A stretch of 11,708 bases of DNA from a virus. Its lineage: Duplodnaviria > Heunggongvirae > Uroviricota > Caudoviricetes. Location: IMG/VR virus record IMGVR_UViG_2778261005_000027. The stretch is one strand, 5' to 3'. The notes beneath the pieces are model-generated. The model was not told the DNA's origin, did no database searches, and worked only from the letters and a program-made list of their open reading frames with translations. Of the stretch, positions 214 to 10,156 are shown piece after piece. Numbering within the stretch: the stretch's first letter is position 1; every line of letters starts with the position of its first letter. A program made the translations under genes and the position numbers.

Positions 214-960
214 TTACTTCGCAATTCCTGGCTGACCAACATTCGGACGCCAGCTCTCCCAGTTAAAATTCACCCATCGCCCGCCGTTCATGGTCATGCG
301 ATCCATAATCCGCTCACCGAGCAATGTTTTCATGGCCTCATAGTTCAGGTTTGTCAGCATCCCCACGCTGCGCATCGACGCTGTCCGGCGATCAACAATC
401 TGATGCAGCACCACCTGCTCGTTTTTCGTCTCGCGCTGAATGCCAATTTCATCAAGAACCAGCAGATCCACTTCGCACAGCTCCCGCAAAAATTTTTCGC
501 CTGACTGCCCGTCGTCATAGCTGGCGTGCAGGGCGCTCATAACATCAGCCACGGTAACCACAATCACTGTCTGACCGTCTTTCAGCAGGCGATTCCCGAT
601 AGCTGCCGCTAAGTGATTCTTCCCGGTACCAGGTTTTCCGCTGAACGAAAAATTTGTACACCCGGTCATCAGTTCATCGGCGATGGATTTCGCCTGGCTT
701 AACGCGTATCGCTGGCCGTCGTTCTGCACCTGGTAATTCGCAAACGAGCATTTACGGTGCAACGGCTGGATGCCAGAGCGATTCAGAATTTTTTCCACCC
801 GCAACTGACGATTCAGACGGTTGATCTCCTCGCAACGTTTCTGGCCTTCAGTAAGTTGCCACTCACGCCACTCCGCAACCGTTCTGAATGGGGCGGTTAC
901 ATGTGGTGGGGTCAGTCTGCGGATACGCTCCAGAACGCCGCCTGTCGCAATATTTTTCAT
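214..960 (-). CDS. ydaV: DnaC-like replication protein / helicase loader (AAA+ ATPase), 248 aa
   Basis: The ORF has a Walker A motif (GKPGTGKNHLAAAIG) and a Walker B motif (LLVLDEIG), typical of DnaC / IstB-like AAA+ loaders. It lies 6 bp downstream of the ydaU stop, suggesting translational coupling. Confidence 0.9.
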   Translation of the reverse strand: MKNIATGGVLERIRRLTPPHVTAPFRTVAEWREWQLTEGQKRCEEINRLNRQLRVEKILNRSGIQPLHRKCSFANYQVQNDGQRYALSQAKSIADELMTGCTNFSFSGKPGTGKNHLAAAIGNRLLKDGQTVIVVTVADVMSALHASYDDGQSGEKFLRELCEVDLLVLDEIGIQRETKNEQVVLHQIVDRRTASMRSVGMLTNLNYEAMKTLLGERIMDRMTMNGGRWVNFNWESWRPNVGQPGIAK

Positions 961-966
961 GGTCTG

Positions 967-1755
967 TTACCCCCTGAAGCCTGGCGGGATCGCACTGTCC
1001 GGCAACGAGACGGTGTTAACCTGTCGGAGCAACGTCTCAGGCCGAACACCTTTCGGTACGAACAAGCCCTGGTATTCATTGGCGATGCTGTGTCGAATCA
1101 CCTGCTCAGGTGTAAAACCCTGCTGACGGAATTTTTCCAGTTCCCGTATCGCCCCGTTAGCGCCCTGCTCCGTTCGAATCGGTTTTCGCAATGCCTGCCT
1201 GAACTGAACCCACTCATGCCAGAGTGTTTCCGGCAACCAGTCAGGCAGCTCGATAGCCTCCGGCTCGAATTTTTTAGACGCTCGTTTTTGGCGAGGGGGA
1301 TTTAGGGGGAGATCAGTATTTATATCTTCCTCTTCCTCTTCCTCTGGTAACGCTTTTTGATCCGTTTGTGTAACGCTGCCAGCGTTACCTTTTCGTTTCA
1401 GTTCGCGTATTTTTGTAACTCGCTCGTTTGTAACCGCCCGTTTTTTAGAGCTTTTCCCGTTATGACGTTCAAAGTTAGGTAGAGAAAGCCCACCGTCATT
1501 TTCGACCAGCCATCCAACCTGAATTAACGCATCAGCAAAACCAGCCATAAAAGTGATGCGATCTATTGCACTTTTTGTAACGCCGCGAGCGTTACAATCT
1601 GCATTACCGTCTATCATTTGTTGATCCGCCCATGCCCAGAAGCGAATAACCTTCCCTAATGCGGCATCTGGATCAATATTCAGAATCTCAGCAAGCCTGA
1701 ATATTTCCGGCTTATCCGGCGTAATAACCTCGAGCTTTATCCAGTTTGAAGCCAT
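967..1755 (-). CDS. ydaU: Putative phage replication initiator (lambda O-like role), 262 aa, with acidic poly-Glu linker
   Basis: Long ORF directly upstream of the DnaC-like gene, preceded by an AGGTGA Shine-Dalgarno. It contains an EEEEEED linker encoded by a (TCTTCC)3 repeat and embedded palindromic repeats. My recollection of K-12 YdaU is 285 aa, so this allele may differ in length. Confidence 0.8.
   Translation of the reverse strand: MASNWIKLEVITPDKPEIFRLAEILNIDPDAALGKVIRFWAWADQQMIDGNADCNARGVTKSAIDRITFMAGFADALIQVGWLVENDGGLSLPNFERHNGKSSKKRAVTNERVTKIRELKRKGNAGSVTQTDQKALPEEEEEEDINTDLPLNPPRQKRASKKFEPEAIELPDWLPETLWHEWVQFRQALRKPIRTEQGANGAIRELEKFRQQGFTPEQVIRHSIANEYQGLFVPKGVRPETLLRQVNTVSLPDSAIPPGFRG
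1369..1389. repeat. Palindrome copy 1 (TGTAACGC-tgcca-GCGTTACc) inside ydaU, flanked by extra GTAAC half-sites at 1346-1353, 1414-1419 and 1428-1434
   Basis: Read directly from the sequence: 8-bp inverted arms separated by 5 bp, with 7 of 8 arm positions symmetric. Confidence 0.75.
1576..1596. repeat. Palindrome copy 2 (TGTAACGC-cgcga-GCGTTACA) inside ydaU
   Basis: Read directly from the sequence: perfect 8-bp inverted arms with a 5-bp spacer. Confidence 0.8.
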
Positions 1756-3335: not shown

Positions 3336-3470
3336 ATGGTGCATTACGAAGTAGTTCAGTATTTGATGGATTGTTGCGGTATCACTTACAGCCAAGCTGT
3401 ACAGGCTCTACGCAGCAACGACTGGGATCTCTGGCAGGCAGAAGCCGCTATATGCAGCAACAAGATGTGA
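3336..3470 (+). CDS. ydaG: Small Rac prophage protein, 44 aa (MVHYEVVQYLMDCCGITYSQAVQALRSNDWDLWQAEAAICSNKM)
   Basis: I translated this by hand; it is below the ORF-track length cut-off. An AAGGGGAGAG Shine-Dalgarno precedes the ATG at 3336. The 44-aa length and position match my recollection of K-12 YdaG. Confidence 0.75.
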   Translation: MVHYEVVQYLMDCCGITYSQAVQALRSNDWDLWQAEAAICSNKM

Positions 3471-3480
3471 GATTCGCAAA

Positions 3481-3636
3481 ATGCAAAAAATCGACCTCGG
3501 CAACAACGAATCCCTAGTGTGTGGCGTGTTCCCCAACCAGGATGGAACGTTCACCGCCATGACGTATACCAAAAGCAAAACGTTTAAAACCGAAGCTGGC
3601 GCACGTCGTTGGTTGGGAAGACATTCAGGTGAGTAA
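3481..3636 (+). CDS. ydaF: Small Rac prophage protein, 51 aa (MQKIDLGNNESLVCGVFPNQDGTFTAMTYTKSKTFKTEAGARRWLGRHSGE)
   Basis: I translated this by hand. The 51-aa length and position match my recollection of K-12 YdaF. Its TAA stop (3634-3636) lies 1 nt before the next ATG. Confidence 0.75.
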   Translation: MQKIDLGNNESLVCGVFPNQDGTFTAMTYTKSKTFKTEAGARRWLGRHSGE

Positions 3637-3637
3637 A

Positions 3638-4000
3638 ATGAACGAGACAGAATTAAAACACGTTATCGCTCTGCTTCTGGAGGATGCAAAGCGCCTCCAG
3701 CAGCTGGAACCAAATGCAGGCACTGAAGAACGAATTATTATGGCTAATAAAAGTCTACATTCTGCATATGATACAAATACAAAGCAAACAGATAAAAATA
3801 TTATTGTTTATGGGCACAGCGTTAACAGAGAATTTGCTTACTTTGTTCTGGAAAAATATCAACCTACATTTTGCCGGATAATAGAAGAACTAACATTAAA
3901 AGGCAAAGATAAAGAGTTTGTTGAAAATGCTGTGGCAACGGCAAGCGCAGCAGCCGTTGCCAGTATCAAATCAATGATTACTCTAGCGATTAACCAATAA
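3638..4000 (+). CDS. Hypothetical protein, 120 aa (ORF track gives 123 aa from GTG 3629); AT-rich cargo gene in the position sieB occupies in K-12 Rac
   Basis: A GGTGAG Shine-Dalgarno lies 4 nt before the ATG at 3638, consistent with coupling to ydaF. The gene is visibly more AT-rich than its flanks (by eye). I recognise no domain. The C-terminus AVATASAAAVASIKSMITLAI is moderately hydrophobic. Confidence 0.6.
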   Translation: MNETELKHVIALLLEDAKRLQQLEPNAGTEERIIMANKSLHSAYDTNTKQTDKNIIVYGHSVNREFAYFVLEKYQPTFCRIIEELTLKGKDKEFVENAVATASAAAVASIKSMITLAINQ

Positions 4001-4169
4001 ACCCAGGGGGGATATCACGCTGAGGCGGGTTAAGAAGCTCGGTAAACTCCGCTCTCAGGCGTTGAACTTCTGAAATAAAATCGGCTTCACTGCAATCCCA
4101 GCCTTTGGGGTGCTTAAGTCGCAAATATTCAAAAACTAACGAATCAATTTCATTCATATTGGATAGCAC
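3990..4169 (-). CDS. Hypothetical small protein, about 59 aa from GTG (55 aa from ATG at complement 4155-4157), ending DIPPGFIG like YdaU
   Basis: An AAGGAGA Shine-Dalgarno lies 6 nt upstream of the GTG at complement 4167-4169. An extended -10 promoter element (TGgTATACT) lies at complement 4203-4211. The C-terminal ...ELLNPPQRDIPPGFIG matches the YdaU C-terminus ...ETLLRQVNTVSLPDSAIPPGFRG using different codons. The longer 115-aa ORF-track version has no Shine-Dalgarno and would contain this promoter. Confidence 0.5.
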   Translation of the reverse strand: MLSNMNEIDSLVFEYLRLKHPKGWDCSEADFISEVQRLRAEFTELLNPPQRDIPPGFIG

Positions 4170-4354
4170 AATTATTCTCCTTACTGGTTGTGTGAGAACT
4201 CCAGTATACCACCGAGCCTGAAGTGGTAAAAAGACAGGCGCACAACACGAAGGCGCATTTCCGGTATCCATAAAGAGTCGGTCTTGTCTGTTAAATTTAA
4301 ATGGTGGGAGTGCGCCTCCGGTTGTAAATAACGACATTGCTGTGTCTAGTCTTT

Positions 4355-4398
4355 GGCGGCATCAGTTCTACTCCGTAGCTGCCCTGCCGCCCCTTTTT
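4355..4398 (+). terminator. Plus-strand rho-independent terminator: GC-rich compound hairpin followed by a T5 tract
   Basis: Outer stem GGCGGCA (4355-4361) pairs with TGCCGCC (4385-4391). Inner stems are CAG/CTG and CTAC/GTAG with loop TCC. A T-tract follows at 4394-4398. On the minus strand the hairpin is followed by AAAG, so it acts in the plus direction only. Confidence 0.6.
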
Positions 4399-4581
4399 AA
4401 AGTGAATTTTGTGATGCGGTGAATGCGGCTAAGCGCACGCGGAACAGTTAAAAAGCTATTGTCCTTCGTAGCAGAGTTATGGGTGAAATATCCGGCGTTA
4501 ATTGTTAACTGGTTAACGTCACCTGGAGGCACCAGGCACCGCATCAACAAAGTTCACTTCAGTGATGAAAGGTGAGAGAAA

Positions 4582-5433
4582 ATGTTGAATGTAGCTATTG
4601 AAAACCAGAACGGGTGGAATTATAGTGCACCTGCACCTCATAAAGCGGGTGCCGGGCGTGGAAACCCGATGATGACTACTGCGCATAACCGCGCTCAGGC
4701 GGTTTTTTTATGCGTAATGCACAGCCACATTCAGATTATGGTGGGGCGTGCAGGGCAGCCGAAAGGCTGGCCGGTTTCGGTAGTCACCGGTATTTCCACC
4801 CCTGTACGTCTCACCACCCTTATGGTCGTGGAAAGCCTTGGTGGTGAGTTATTTAAACTGACTATCGAGGCTGCCATCATGGCTACTATCCCTACCCTTT
4901 CTCACCCTGACGTAACCATCGAAAATGGTCGTGCTGCCACTACGTCTGTTGCAGTTGCAGAGTTTTTCCGCAAGCTGCATAAAAACGTCATTCAAAAAAT
5001 TGAAGCTCTGGAATGTTCCTCAGAATTCACTGAGCTTAATTTTAAGCCAAGTGAATACACCGACTCAACCGGGCGCAAACTCCCAATGTACCAAATCACC
5101 AAAAACGGCTTCGTTTTCCTGGTGATGGGTTTCACTGGCAAAAAAGCCGCTGCATTCAAAGAGGCCTACATCGCTGAGTTCGACCGCATGGAAGCAGAGC
5201 TACGCCAGAATAATACCACTCCCACAAACAAAATCATTCCGGGCGATGGGCGCACTCTGGTTGTTCGCTTCGACAAATTCGGCAACGTCGAATTCACTGA
5301 AACCGTTCCTGATGGCGCTCTCGTCTGTACCCTGGACACTTTCCGCCTTTATCTGGAGAAACAGGGCTGGACTCTTGTAAACCGAAGCGCAATTAAAAAT
5401 ATGACCGTCGAGCAGTTGCTGAGTATTAAATAG
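4582..5433 (+). CDS. Rha-family phage regulatory protein (longest ORF 283 aa; Rha-like domain begins near an alternative ATG at 4879, giving 184 aa)
   Basis: The segment TTSVAVAEFFRKLHKNVIQKIEAL ... YQITKNGFVFLVMGFTGKKAAAFKEAYIAEFDRME resembles the conserved Rha (Phage_pRha) N-terminal domain as I remember it. Both the ATG at 4582 (GGTGAG Shine-Dalgarno) and the ATG at 4879 (GAGG 8 nt upstream) are plausible starts. Confidence 0.6.
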   Translation: MLNVAIENQNGWNYSAPAPHKAGAGRGNPMMTTAHNRAQAVFLCVMHSHIQIMVGRAGQPKGWPVSVVTGISTPVRLTTLMVVESLGGELFKLTIEAAIMATIPTLSHPDVTIENGRAATTSVAVAEFFRKLHKNVIQKIEALECSSEFTELNFKPSEYTDSTGRKLPMYQITKNGFVFLVMGFTGKKAAAFKEAYIAEFDRMEAELRQNNTTPTNKIIPGDGRTLVVRFDKFGNVEFTETVPDGALVCTLDTFRLYLEKQGWTLVNRSAIKNMTVEQLLSIK

Positions 5434-6321: not shown

Positions 6322-8922
6322 ATGAGCACAAAACCACTCTTCCTGTTACGGAAAGCGAAAAAATCATCCGGTGAACCTGACGTCGTCCTGTGGGCAAGCA
6401 ACGATTTTGAATCGACCTGTGCCACTCTGGACTACCTGATCGTTAAGTCAGGTAAAAAACTGAGCAGCTATTTTAAAGCTGTTGCCACGAATTTTCCTGT
6501 CGTTAATGACCTGCCCGCTGAAGGTGAGATCGATTTTACCTGGAGTGAACGCTATCAACTCAGCAAAGACTCCATGACATGGGAACTAAAACCGGGAGCA
6601 GCACCAGACAACGCTCACTATCAAAGCAATACCAACGTCAACGGCGAAGACATGACTGAGATTGAGGAGAATATGCTACTCCCAATTTCTGGCCAGGAAC
6701 TGCCCATTCGTTGGCTTGCTCAACACGGCAGCGAAAAACCGGTAACGCACGTTTCACGCGACGGACTCCAGGCATTACACATTGCTCGGGCTGAAGAACT
6801 ACCGGCTGTTACTGCCCTGGCTGTTTCCCACAAAACCAGCCTGCTCGACCCGCTGGAAATTCGCGAACTCCACAAACTGGTTCGTGACACTGACAAAGTT
6901 TTCCCTAATCCTGGTAATTCAAACCTGGGACTGATAACTGCTTTTTTCGAAGCATACCTGAACGCTGACTACACCGATCGAGGACTGCTGACAAAAGAGT
7001 GGATGAAGGGTAATCGTGTTTCACACATCACTCGCACGGCTTCCGGTGCTAATGCTGGCGGCGGAAACCTCACCGATCGCGGCGAAGGTTTCGTACACGA
7101 TCTGACGTCACTGGCGCGCGACGTAGCCACTGGCGTACTGGCCCGTTCAATGGATCTGGACATCTATAACCTTCATCCGGCACACGCTAAACGCATTGAG
7201 GAAATTATCGCTGAAAATAAACCGCCCTTTTCTGTTTTCCGCGACAAATTCATCACCATGCCTGGCGGGCTGGATTATTCCCGCGCCATCGTGGTTGCGT
7301 CCGTAAAAGAAGCACCAATTGGGATCGAGGTCATCCCCGCGCACGTCACTGAATATCTGAACAAAGTACTGACTGAAACCGATCATGCCAACCCTGATCC
7401 GGAAATCGTGGATATTGCCTGCGGTCGCTCCTCTGCCCCAATGCCGCAGCGAGTAACAGAAGAAGGAAAACAGGATGATGAAGAAAAACCGCAACCATCT
7501 GGAACAACGGCAGTTGAACAGGGAGAGGCTGAAACAATGGAACCGGACGCAACTGAACATCATCAGGACACGCAGCCGCTGGATGCTCAGTCACAGGTAA
7601 ATTCTATTGATGCGAAATATCAGGAACTGCGGGCAGAACTCCATGAAGCCCGGAAAAACATTCCATCAAAAGATCCTGTCGATGCCGATAAATTGCTTGC
7701 TGCATCACGTGGTGAATTTGTTGACGGAATTAGCGACCCGAACGATCCGAAATGGGTAAAGGGGATCCAGACTCGCGATTGTGTGTACCAGAACCAGCCA
7801 GAAACGGAAAAAACCAGCCCGGATATGAATCAACCTGAGCCAGTAGTGCAACAGGAACCGGAAATAGCCTGCAATGCCTGCGGCCAGACTGGCGGGGATA
7901 ACTGCCCTGACTGTGGTGCGGTGATGGGCGACGCAACATACCAGGAAACATTCGATGAAGAGAGTCAGGTTGAAGCTAAGGAAAATGATCCGGAGGAAAT
8001 GGAAGGCGCTGAACATCCGCACAATGAGAATGCTGGCAGCGATCCGCATCGCGATTGCAGTGATGAAACTGGCGAAGTCGCAGATCCCGTAATCGTAGAA
8101 GACATAGAGCCAGGTATTTATTACGGAATTTCGAATGAGAATTACCACGCGGGTCCCGGTGTCAGTAAGTCTCAGCTCGATGACATTGCTGATACTCCGG
8201 CACTATATTTGTGGCGTAAAAATGCCCCCGTTGACACCACAAAGACAAAAACGCTCGATTTAGGAACCGCTTTCCACTGCCGGGTACTTGAACCGGAAGA
8301 ATTCAGTAACCGCTTTATCGTAGCACCTGAATTTAACCGCCGTACAAACGCCGGAAAAGAAGAAGAGAAAGCGTTTCTGATGGAATGCGCAAGCACAGGA
8401 AAAACAGTTATCACTGCGGAAGAAGGCCGGAAAATTGAACTCATGTATCAAAGCGTTATGGCTTTGCCGCTGGGGCAATGGCTTGTTGAAAGCGCCGGAC
8501 ACGCTGAATCATCAATTTACTGGGAAGATCCTGAAACAGGAATTTTGTGTCGGTGCCGTCCGGACAAAATTATCCCTGAATTTCACTGGATCATGGACGT
8601 GAAAACTACGGCGGATATTCAACGATTCAAAACCGCTTATTACGACTACCGCTATCACGTTCAGGATGCATTCTACAGTGACGGTTATGAAGCACAGTTT
8701 GGAGTGCAGCCAACTTTCGTTTTTCTGGTTGCCAGCACAACTATTGAATGCGGACGTTATCCGGTTGAAATTTTCATGATGGGCGAAGAAGCAAAACTGG
8801 CAGGTCAACAGGAATATCACCGCAATCTGCGAACCCTGTCTGACTGCCTGAATACCGATGAATGGCCAGCTATTAAGACATTATCACTGCCCCGCTGGGC
8901 TAAGGAATATGCAAATGACTAA
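6322..8922 (+). CDS. recE: Exodeoxyribonuclease VIII (RecE), 866 aa
   Basis: The 866-aa length matches K-12 RecE. The C-terminal nuclease region ([26 protein letters not shown] ... DVKTTADIQ) is recognisable. The central part is acidic and low-complexity and carries a CNACG...CPDCG motif. recE overlaps recT by 8 bp. Confidence 0.92.
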
Positions 8923-9768: not shown

Positions 9769-9975
9769 ATGACAAAAACTTTGAGATATGACGATGTTAA
9801 ACCATGTCCGTTTTGTGGTTGTCCATCAGTAACGGTGAAAGACATTTCATGATATTACCGGGCAAAATGCAACGGATGCGAATCCCGAACTGGCTATGGT
9901 GGAAGTGAAAAAGAAGCGCTCGAAAGATGGGATAAACGAACCACTGAAAATATTAATGGAGGCGTTCATGTATAA
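9769..9975 (+). pseudogene. ralR: ralR (lar, restriction-alleviation / type I toxin) reading frame interrupted by an in-frame TGA at 9850-9852
   Basis: The frame reads MTKTLRYDDVKPCPFCGCPSVTVKDIS-stop-YYRAKCNGCESRTGYGGSEKEALERWDKRTTENINGGVHV-stop. The stop separates the two CxxC halves of a zinc ribbon. Counting from the TTG at 9781 gives 64 codons, the length I recall for K-12 RalR, where I believe a Gly codon (GGA) occupies this position. Confidence 0.55.
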
Positions 9976-10156
9976 AATTACCGCTACAATTGAAAAGGAA
10001 GGTGGCACTCCTACTAACTGGACAAGATATTCAAAATCTAAACTAACGAAATCAGAATGCGAAAAAATGCTCTCAGGTAAAAAAGAAGCAGGCGTTTCCA
10101 GAGAGCAGAAAGTAAAACTGATAAATTTTAATTGCGAGAAACTTCAGTCCTCGTGA
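9968..10156 (+). CDS. ydaC: Small Rac prophage protein (ydaC-like), 62 aa from ATG 9968 (in-frame alternative starts at 9956 and 9896)
   Basis: A GGAGG Shine-Dalgarno lies 5 nt before the ATG at 9968. The gene sits between ralR and xisR as in K-12. I cannot match the exact length to K-12 YdaC. Confidence 0.65.
   Translation: MYKITATIEKEGGTPTNWTRYSKSKLTKSECEKMLSGKKEAGVSREQKVKLINFNCEKLQSS

Follow-up and report, generated by a model that had tools for sequence, protein, structure and literature searches.

A rare small gene of Rac-like prophages with a predicted DnaT-type tail core

A small minus-strand ORF in the early region of a prophage ends in nearly the same residues as the replication initiator encoded in that region, and this locus raises the question of whether the ORF is a gene and, if it is, what the common C-terminus means. 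The window, i.e., the whole 11,708-nucleotide stretch of DNA that was analysed, is the early region of a Rac-like E. coli prophage, and between positions 3400 and 4700 it is 100% identical to O157:H7 strain 2571. Its minus strand carries ydaS, ydaT, the gene for the 262-aa initiator (967-1755) and the DnaC/IstB-like ydaV (214-960), and its plus strand the repressor, ydaG, ydaF, a 123-aa ORF, a Rha-type gene, kilR, ydaE, racC, recE, recT and the integrase. The features that concern us are the following.

214-960, minus strand: YdaV, DnaC/IstB-like AAA+ helicase loader (PF01695, E = 4e-19; phrog_50, E = 3e-84)
967-1755, minus strand: replication initiator/replisome organiser, 262 aa (phrog_2509, E = 1.9e-89; no Pfam match)
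970-1026, minus strand: 19-residue DnaT-type tail module RQVNTVSLPDSAIPPGFRG, matching DnaT residues 161-179
3629-4000, plus strand: orf123 (123 aa), convergent conserved neighbour, its 3' end overlapping the small ORF by 11 nt
3990-4169, minus strand: small ORF, 59 aa, GTG start (PGAP CDS WP_001502430.1, same coordinates)
3993-4016, minus strand: tail codons for D-I-P-P-G-F-I-G, with the core [IV]PxG[FW] common to DnaT and phage organisers
4177-4182, minus strand: Shine-Dalgarno sequence AAGGAG, 7 nt upstream of the GTG, read from the sequence
4203-4230, minus strand: predicted sigma-70-type promoter, TTTACC, 16 nt spacer, TG-n-TATACT (extended -10), from the sequence
4341-4392, plus strand: DicF-like sRNA (Rfam RF00039, 55 bits against a gathering score of 48)
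4633-4709, 4734-4821 and 4620-4672, plus strand: RNA matches, given in the order isrK, C4 antisense RNA and a sub-threshold c4-a1b1 target element

The small ORF, whose translation is VLSNMNEIDSLVFEYLRLKHPKGWDCSEADFISEVQRLRAEFTELLNPPQRDIPPGFIG up to the stop codon, is a genuine gene. This is because it is called by PGAP, has a Shine-Dalgarno sequence and an extended -10 promoter, is under purifying selection and has a conserved leader and promoter. Its divergent relatives, at 53-57% identity, are found in L002, another Rac-like prophage, and in L004, a short metagenomic contig. Compared with these homologues, pN is about 0.31 and pS 0.74-0.86, and the frame is clearly indicated to be under purifying selection, with dN/dS well below 1 and synonymous sites saturated. 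In L002, the counterpart of the Shine-Dalgarno sequence is TAAGGA, 8 nt before a TTG start, and a non-ATG start is found in both. A 36-nt block, GGTGGTATACTGGAGTTCTCACACAACCAGTAAGGA, which spans the -10 element and the leader, is identical between window positions 4178-4213 (minus strand) and L002 positions 8066-8101. It is unchanged even though the coding sequences of the window and L002 are only ~53% identical at the protein level, and this identity suggests a regulatory constraint beyond the promoter. An ATG-started version of 115 aa (3990-4337) was considered and rejected, as its upstream part is the promoter plus the reverse complement of DicF and has frame-shifting indels in L002. The non-coding DNA upstream of the small-ORF promoter is conserved because the DicF-like sRNA is located there.

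The gene is carried by 9 of 5,426 complete E. coli genomes, one copy each, and is absent from the sequenced phages of the annotated phage collection. An exhaustive HMMER search of 1.84 billion representatives gave three relatives only, and a word-indexed search gave two near-identical clusters. Since the family is tiny, the comparative support is thin. In every context examined, the small ORF has ydaF-orf123 on one side and kilR on the other, within a Rac-like prophage, and it is best explained as a rare accessory ('moron'-type) gene of such prophages. The corresponding slot of K-12 Rac is filled by sieB, which is flanked by kilR and ydaF, shares its strand with the replication genes and converges with ydaF; in the window it holds the convergent pair orf123 and small ORF. 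The small ORF matches sieB of K-12 Rac in position and orientation, and, like SieB of Rac, lambda and P22, it is convergent with early-left genes. However, only the slot is common to the two. Among Pfam and PHROG families no SieB homology of the small ORF was found, and SieB is an unrelated protein (K-12 sieB has 489 nt, ~162 codons). The arrangement of orf123 and the small ORF is kept in L002 and L004. In three divergent loci orf123 is full length and under purifying selection, with amino-acid identity of 53-62%, pS of 0.63-0.69 and pN of 0.23-0.33. It is always convergently paired with the small ORF; PGAP marks it merely as a 40-codon pseudogene fragment, and its PHROG matches, to families with no assigned function, are confined to the first ~47 residues.

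The DicF-like sRNA belongs to the early-left operon, upstream of kilR, and lies on the other strand directly upstream of the small-ORF promoter. It is followed by a sub-threshold STnc100 match at 4382-4565. The isrK (63.5 bits) and C4 antisense RNA (79.3 bits) genes, and with them the sub-threshold c4-a1b1 target element, fall within the first ~80 codons of a 283-aa CDS (4582-5433, plus strand), which is named 'Rha family' by PGAP and has its Rha domain from residue 120. Its N-terminal 'Phage_ASH' Pfam match (residues 14-109) overlies the same DNA as these RNA genes, and either the start of the CDS is over-extended or the Ash family is partly the translation of an RNA locus. The isrK/C4 locus resembles a c4/ant immunity module of the P1 type that has been inserted in Rac. 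Opposite the ralR region there is, as in K-12 Rac, a full-length RalA antitoxin sRNA (218 bits, 9974-10152, minus strand).

The initial annotation of this DNA had pointed to an IPPGFxG tail common to the small ORF and the initiator, and this tail is seen in the translations: the small ORF ends ...NPPQRDIPPGFIG (DIPPGFIG) and the initiator ...LPDSAIPPGFRG (AIPPGFRG). It was equally correct in attributing the tail to conservation at the protein level, on the ground that different codons are used. The codons are ATC CCC CCT GGG TTT ATT GGT in the small ORF and ATC CCG CCA GGC TTC AGG GGG in the initiator, and since these seven differ at nearly every third position, no recent DNA duplication has taken place. 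No other pair of the 83 window ORFs with 40 aa or more has six of seven C-terminal residues identical, and the next best pair has four. With residue-shuffled ORFs, six of seven was reached in 0.25% of 2,000 trials (p ~0.0025, for any ORF pair in the window), and the chance of a C-terminal IPPGFxG is 2.5e-8 per ORF, with a window expectation of 2e-6. The tail match is real and biologically meaningful.

Only the tail is common to the small ORF and the initiator. The ORF had also been described as aligning loosely with the initiator further upstream, with a common ELL, and as a stand-alone copy of the initiator's C-terminal domain, and these proposals are not borne out. BLASTP between the two proteins gives E = 51, for an unrelated segment, and when the two families are compared by hhalign, the alignment is limited to 9 tail columns, D..IPxGF[IR], with a probability of 9.9%. 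Thus the pairwise and profile alignment that had been proposed as a check recovers the tail columns, of which D-IPPGF-x-G aligns, and nothing beyond them. Against the YdaU-type C-terminal domain (PxWL..LW.EWV.FR..L.KPI.T..G...), the small ORF has no similarity by BLASTP, and profile alignment gives the tail only. The predictions differ as well, with a hairpin for the small protein and a three-helix domain for the initiator's C-terminal domain.

For the small protein, AF2 with a four-sequence alignment predicts, at a mean pLDDT of 82, a confident hairpin of two helices (residues 7-19 and 28-46) and, at its C-terminus, a non-helical segment (pLDDT ~63). No relatives were found in Pfam, PHROG, NCBIfam, PADLOC or the PDB (sequence and fold), and PADLOC models gave zero families for the small ORF, orf123 and the initiator. 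The invariant positions of the family alignment are L16, R17, P21, G23, W24, C26, E28, F31, E34, R37-L38-R39, F42 and E44-L45-L46, and in the tail P54 and G56 are kept, within the core [IV]-P-x-G-[FW]. The residues that precede this core diverge in the family, with indels. The homologues end ...VVPDGFVSTL and ...TVPEGWITSLEE, and the motif of these two distant homologues (VPDGF, VPEGW) is not at the extreme C-terminus. The residue following the Phe is hydrophobic (I/V) in the small family, whereas it is R, K or T in the organisers.

The key to the identity of the motif is its link to DnaT, which the initial annotation missed. The C-terminus of E. coli DnaT is a 19-residue tail (residues 161-179) with IPPGF-x-G at its extreme end. 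A search of PDB sequences with the initiator gave DnaT only (2RU8, 9ZBT chain D and 6AEP), and E. coli DnaT and the DnaT of 6AEP, which ends ...RDINSVSEPDNHIPPGFRG and which we take to be the K. pneumoniae protein, are the sole matches to the tail among PDB sequences. With the NCBIfam DnaT model, the initiator is matched at positions 161-179 only, and the match between a profile of the initiator's C-terminal domain and DnaT shrinks to the last ~30 residues. Thus the part common to the initiator and DnaT is essentially the 19-residue terminal module. No structural match was found between the initiator's C-terminal domain, which is predicted as a three-helix domain, and the three-helix bundle of DnaT. 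The module is kept in initiator homologues down to ~55% identity, the linker that precedes it varies, and IPxGF variants are tolerated where x is P, D, E, K, F, A or T. In one initiator homologue (P0080, 289 aa), the tail module is present as a tandem duplicate, ...PGPDKQIPAGFRGARQERDINQISEPDSTIPPGFRG, which shows that the motif can work internally, perhaps multivalently.

The name YdaU, used so far for the initiator, fits its C-terminal half, which is close to that of K-12 YdaU, with the final 19 residues identical; it does not fit the N-terminal domain, which is different and is not DUF1376. K-12 YdaU (L130, 9120-9977) has a DUF1376 N-terminal domain, with the C-terminal half and tail as in the window initiator. 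The window initiator is a domain chimera, in which the C-terminal half of K-12 YdaU is joined to a non-DUF1376 N-terminal domain (phrog_2509/9474), and this N-terminal type is also found in Salmonella phage SPN1S.

At the sequence level, the tail of the small ORF is shown to be the core of the DnaT tail. The likeness to E. coli DnaT is the IPPGF-x-G at the extreme C-terminus. Though the window initiator has the whole 19-residue module, the small ORF holds only ~8 of the 19 residues; when compared with the DnaT tail ...RDVN.VSEPD..IPPGFRG, the D-IPPGF-x-G core is there and the upstream half (RDVN.IS.PD) is missing. For the PF17948 three-helix ssDNA-binding domain of DnaT, the small ORF gave no Pfam match above noise (in a positive control, a DnaT sequence gave E = 3.7e-21). 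The N-terminal oligomerisation domain and the acidic PriB-binding linker of DnaT are also missing from the 59-residue ORF, which consists of hairpin and tail, and no NCBIfam DnaT model matched it. A homology search with the DnaT N-terminal domain gave fragments only. The small ORF matches no PHROG family, those of organisers included, whereas the adjacent initiator matches phrog_2509.

Literature searches gave no description of a DnaT-type tail motif or of its partner, and the literature on 'IPPGF' concerned only cathelicidin PR-39 and enamel peptides. When the last 18 residues of DnaT are deleted, trimers become dimers (Szymanski 2013, via PMC5314882), and this is the only tail effect reported in the literature searched. 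The preprimosome cryo-EM models of 2026 were built from DnaT residues 84-153, and the tail is unmodelled in 9ZBT and 9ZBU (PMC13377028). According to the authors, the handover from PriA-PriB-DnaT to DnaB-DnaC 'remains unknown', and they favour, speculatively, the N-terminal domain of DnaT, not the tail, as the recruiter of DnaB/DnaC (PMC13377028).

The same tail is found on many phage proteins. Three scans of viral contigs for IPPGFxG followed by a stop gave at least 323 ORFs, almost all of them organisers, and among the matches listed the tail is borne by at least six unrelated C-terminal architectures. A tblastn search of 50,697 phage records with the tail gave 49 records, all of Escherichia, Salmonella, Klebsiella, Shigella or Pantoea. 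Where annotated, the matches are replication, primosomal, DNA-binding or 'hypothetical' proteins, two have unexpected labels ('pyocin large subunit' and 'transcriptional regulator'), and two are host DnaT genes carried by Salmonella contigs. The annotated phage-record matches (n = 47) are on replication or DNA-binding proteins bar two evident mis-annotations. The enterobacterial organisers, which are labelled 'replication protein O', 'primosomal protein I' or 'DnaD-like helicase loader' (PHROGs 2509, 3729/1701, 678 and 6451), have the same tail on a variable body. They resemble the small ORF in prophage type and host range, but they are 260-400 aa long and have an N-terminal domain that binds the origin, whereas the small ORF has 59 aa and no organiser domain. 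L002 and L131, two prophages that carry the small ORF, have organisers of another type (phrog_3729/1701, 'DnaD-like helicase loader'), which end ...SEPDTEIPPGFRG and ...SEPDNEIPPGFRG. No co-variation of the small-ORF tail with that of the resident organiser was seen: in L002, it is VPDGF in the former and IPPGFRG in the latter. Other small tail-only proteins were represented by spurious ORFs only among the matches listed from the three viral-contig scans, e.g., an antisense ORF in L334.

The genes that follow the organisers differ. Among the matches listed from viral contigs, a DnaC-like gene comes after the window-type organiser in 23 of 23 cases, and it follows 4 of the 33 type-b and 7 of the 29 type-c organisers on contigs with enough downstream sequence. 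In SPN1S, Tritos and a Klebsiella phage, there is a tail-bearing organiser and no DnaC-like gene; a Ren-like gene directly follows the organiser, and there is no loader. On L129 and ~60 other viral contigs, where the organiser has no DnaC-like partner, the next gene encodes a Ren-like exclusion protein of 140 aa (phrog_142), again an exclusion-type gene beside the replication module. In its distribution, the tail is shown to behave as a portable module, independent of any phage loader, and the comparisons support its being a functional short linear motif that is connected with the initiation of replication.

Since the tail is present on host DnaT and in phages that have no DnaC-like gene, its partner would be a host factor and not YdaV specifically. 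The initial annotation's choice of YdaV as the specific partner is therefore unlikely. We infer that the tail docks one host replication factor, and the leading candidate would be DnaB-DnaC, followed by DnaT itself and PriA/PriB. This is because DnaT and the organisers share the task of bringing DnaB-DnaC to single-stranded DNA, and nothing else. In addition, all finds of the motif were in phages and prophages of Enterobacterales hosts, as would be expected for this partner, since DnaC and DnaT are known to be similarly restricted to Enterobacterales.

A competitive or exclusion role is the part of the earlier proposal that is left standing, and it is the most economical reading of the small ORF; the analogy drawn with lambda O and P holds only loosely. 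We suggest, tentatively and as a possible rather than an established function, that the small ORF is a tail mimic which modulates or blocks helicase recruitment by competition. The product would be a small helical hairpin protein that presents the DnaT-type tail core D-IPPGF-x-G as a docking peptide. The candidate dock is the DnaB-DnaC helicase-loader complex, which is recruited by DnaT and organisers alike. By occupying this site as a mimic, the small protein could damp or block the recruitment of the helicase by tail-bearing organisers, either those of a superinfecting relative or a leaky resident initiator. Upon induction, early-left transcription, running antisense through the small ORF, would switch the gene off. 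A gene that is on in the lysogen and off at induction classically has its own promoter and runs antisense to the early-left operon, and this arrangement is circumstantially in keeping with an exclusion role, or with replication that is licensed only at induction. A constitutive blocker of DnaT would be costly, as dnaT mutants are sick (PMC13377028), and the action of the small protein would thus be weak, conditional or selective.

Other readings of the common tail have to be weighed against competition. The resemblance could be coincidental or convergent, with a real small protein whose unrelated function lies in the hairpin. Only 6-8 residues are in common, chance ORFs ending in IPPGFxG do occur in very large collections (the spurious L334 antisense ORF ends DIPPGFIG), and the version in the distant homologues is degenerate and not C-terminal. 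We nevertheless consider coincidence somewhat unlikely, since the match occurs inside one 12-kb window, adjoining the replication module, with a motif that is otherwise confined to DnaT and organisers, and the core is kept while the family's flanks diverge and gain indels. Quite unlikely, in our view, is a tail that serves for self-association or as a tail-acceptor element, by which the small protein caps or poisons oligomers or filaments of DnaT or the organiser. DnaT function needs oligomerisation and filament formation, the deletion of its last 18 residues reduces trimers to dimers (Szymanski 2013, via PMC5314882), and the small ORF is always co-resident with a tail-bearing organiser. However, at least six unrelated C-terminal domains would each need an acceptor of their own, for which a single external partner is simpler, and co-residence is uninformative because most Rac-like prophages carry such organisers.

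The small protein could instead be a positive adaptor, in which the hairpin binds a cargo or DNA structure, e.g., RecET intermediates, and the tail brings the helicase-loading machinery. This has the domain logic of an organiser, i.e., a variable targeting domain with a constant tail, and recE and recT are in the same prophage arm, but neither a DNA-binding fold nor a known interaction fold was detected in the 45-residue hairpin, and the small ORF is antisense to the recET operon, so that different expression times are expected. We regard such an adaptor as improbable. A C-terminal degron, making the initiators, DnaT and the small protein unstable, as for lambda O, would account for a conserved and poorly predicted C-terminal peptide, and phage initiators are classically short-lived. 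This is very improbable, given that the conserved module is 19 residues long and that C-terminal extensions (GFRGAKK, GFVSTL) and internal duplication are tolerated, which free C-terminal tags usually do not allow; to our knowledge, the tail is also unlike known ClpX or Lon C-terminal tags. Hardly credible, finally, is the titration of YdaV by a copy of the initiator's C-terminal domain. The tail is in common and ydaV is in the same prophage, but there is no likeness beyond the tail, the predicted folds differ, and the tail is widespread in the absence of a YdaV-like gene and present on host DnaT.

For the favoured reading, competition by a tail mimic, the nearest functional precedent is ORF104 of Staphylococcus phage 77, a protein of 52 residues that inhibits the host helicase loader DnaI (PMC4887207). 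Both are very small phage proteins, and C-terminal residues of ORF104 help to bind a replication-loading factor; its gene is genetically linked to a phage-encoded loader homologue. It is a precedent only, since no homology is expected, ORF104 binds the AAA+ domain with no known mimicry of a host tail, and its activity is demonstrated whereas that of the small ORF is proposed.

The 19-residue tail is the one element that DnaT shares with many unrelated organisers, which do the same job and are often loader-less. Thus, this short peptide is a concrete candidate for the recruitment contact, and the small ORF is a natural 'tail-only' reagent for it. A bolder version, which we consider unlikely but worth stating, takes the ...PD..IPPGF[RK]G tail for the missing helicase-recruitment element, which would capture DnaB-DnaC for DnaT and the organisers, and the 59-residue protein for a natural tail decoy in superinfection exclusion or replication licensing. 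Even if there is no competition, the organiser tail module is still useful for annotation. If competition is true, the small ORF would give a prophage a new and very simple means of controlling or excluding the replication of its relatives, through motif mimicry directed at the replication-restart machinery.
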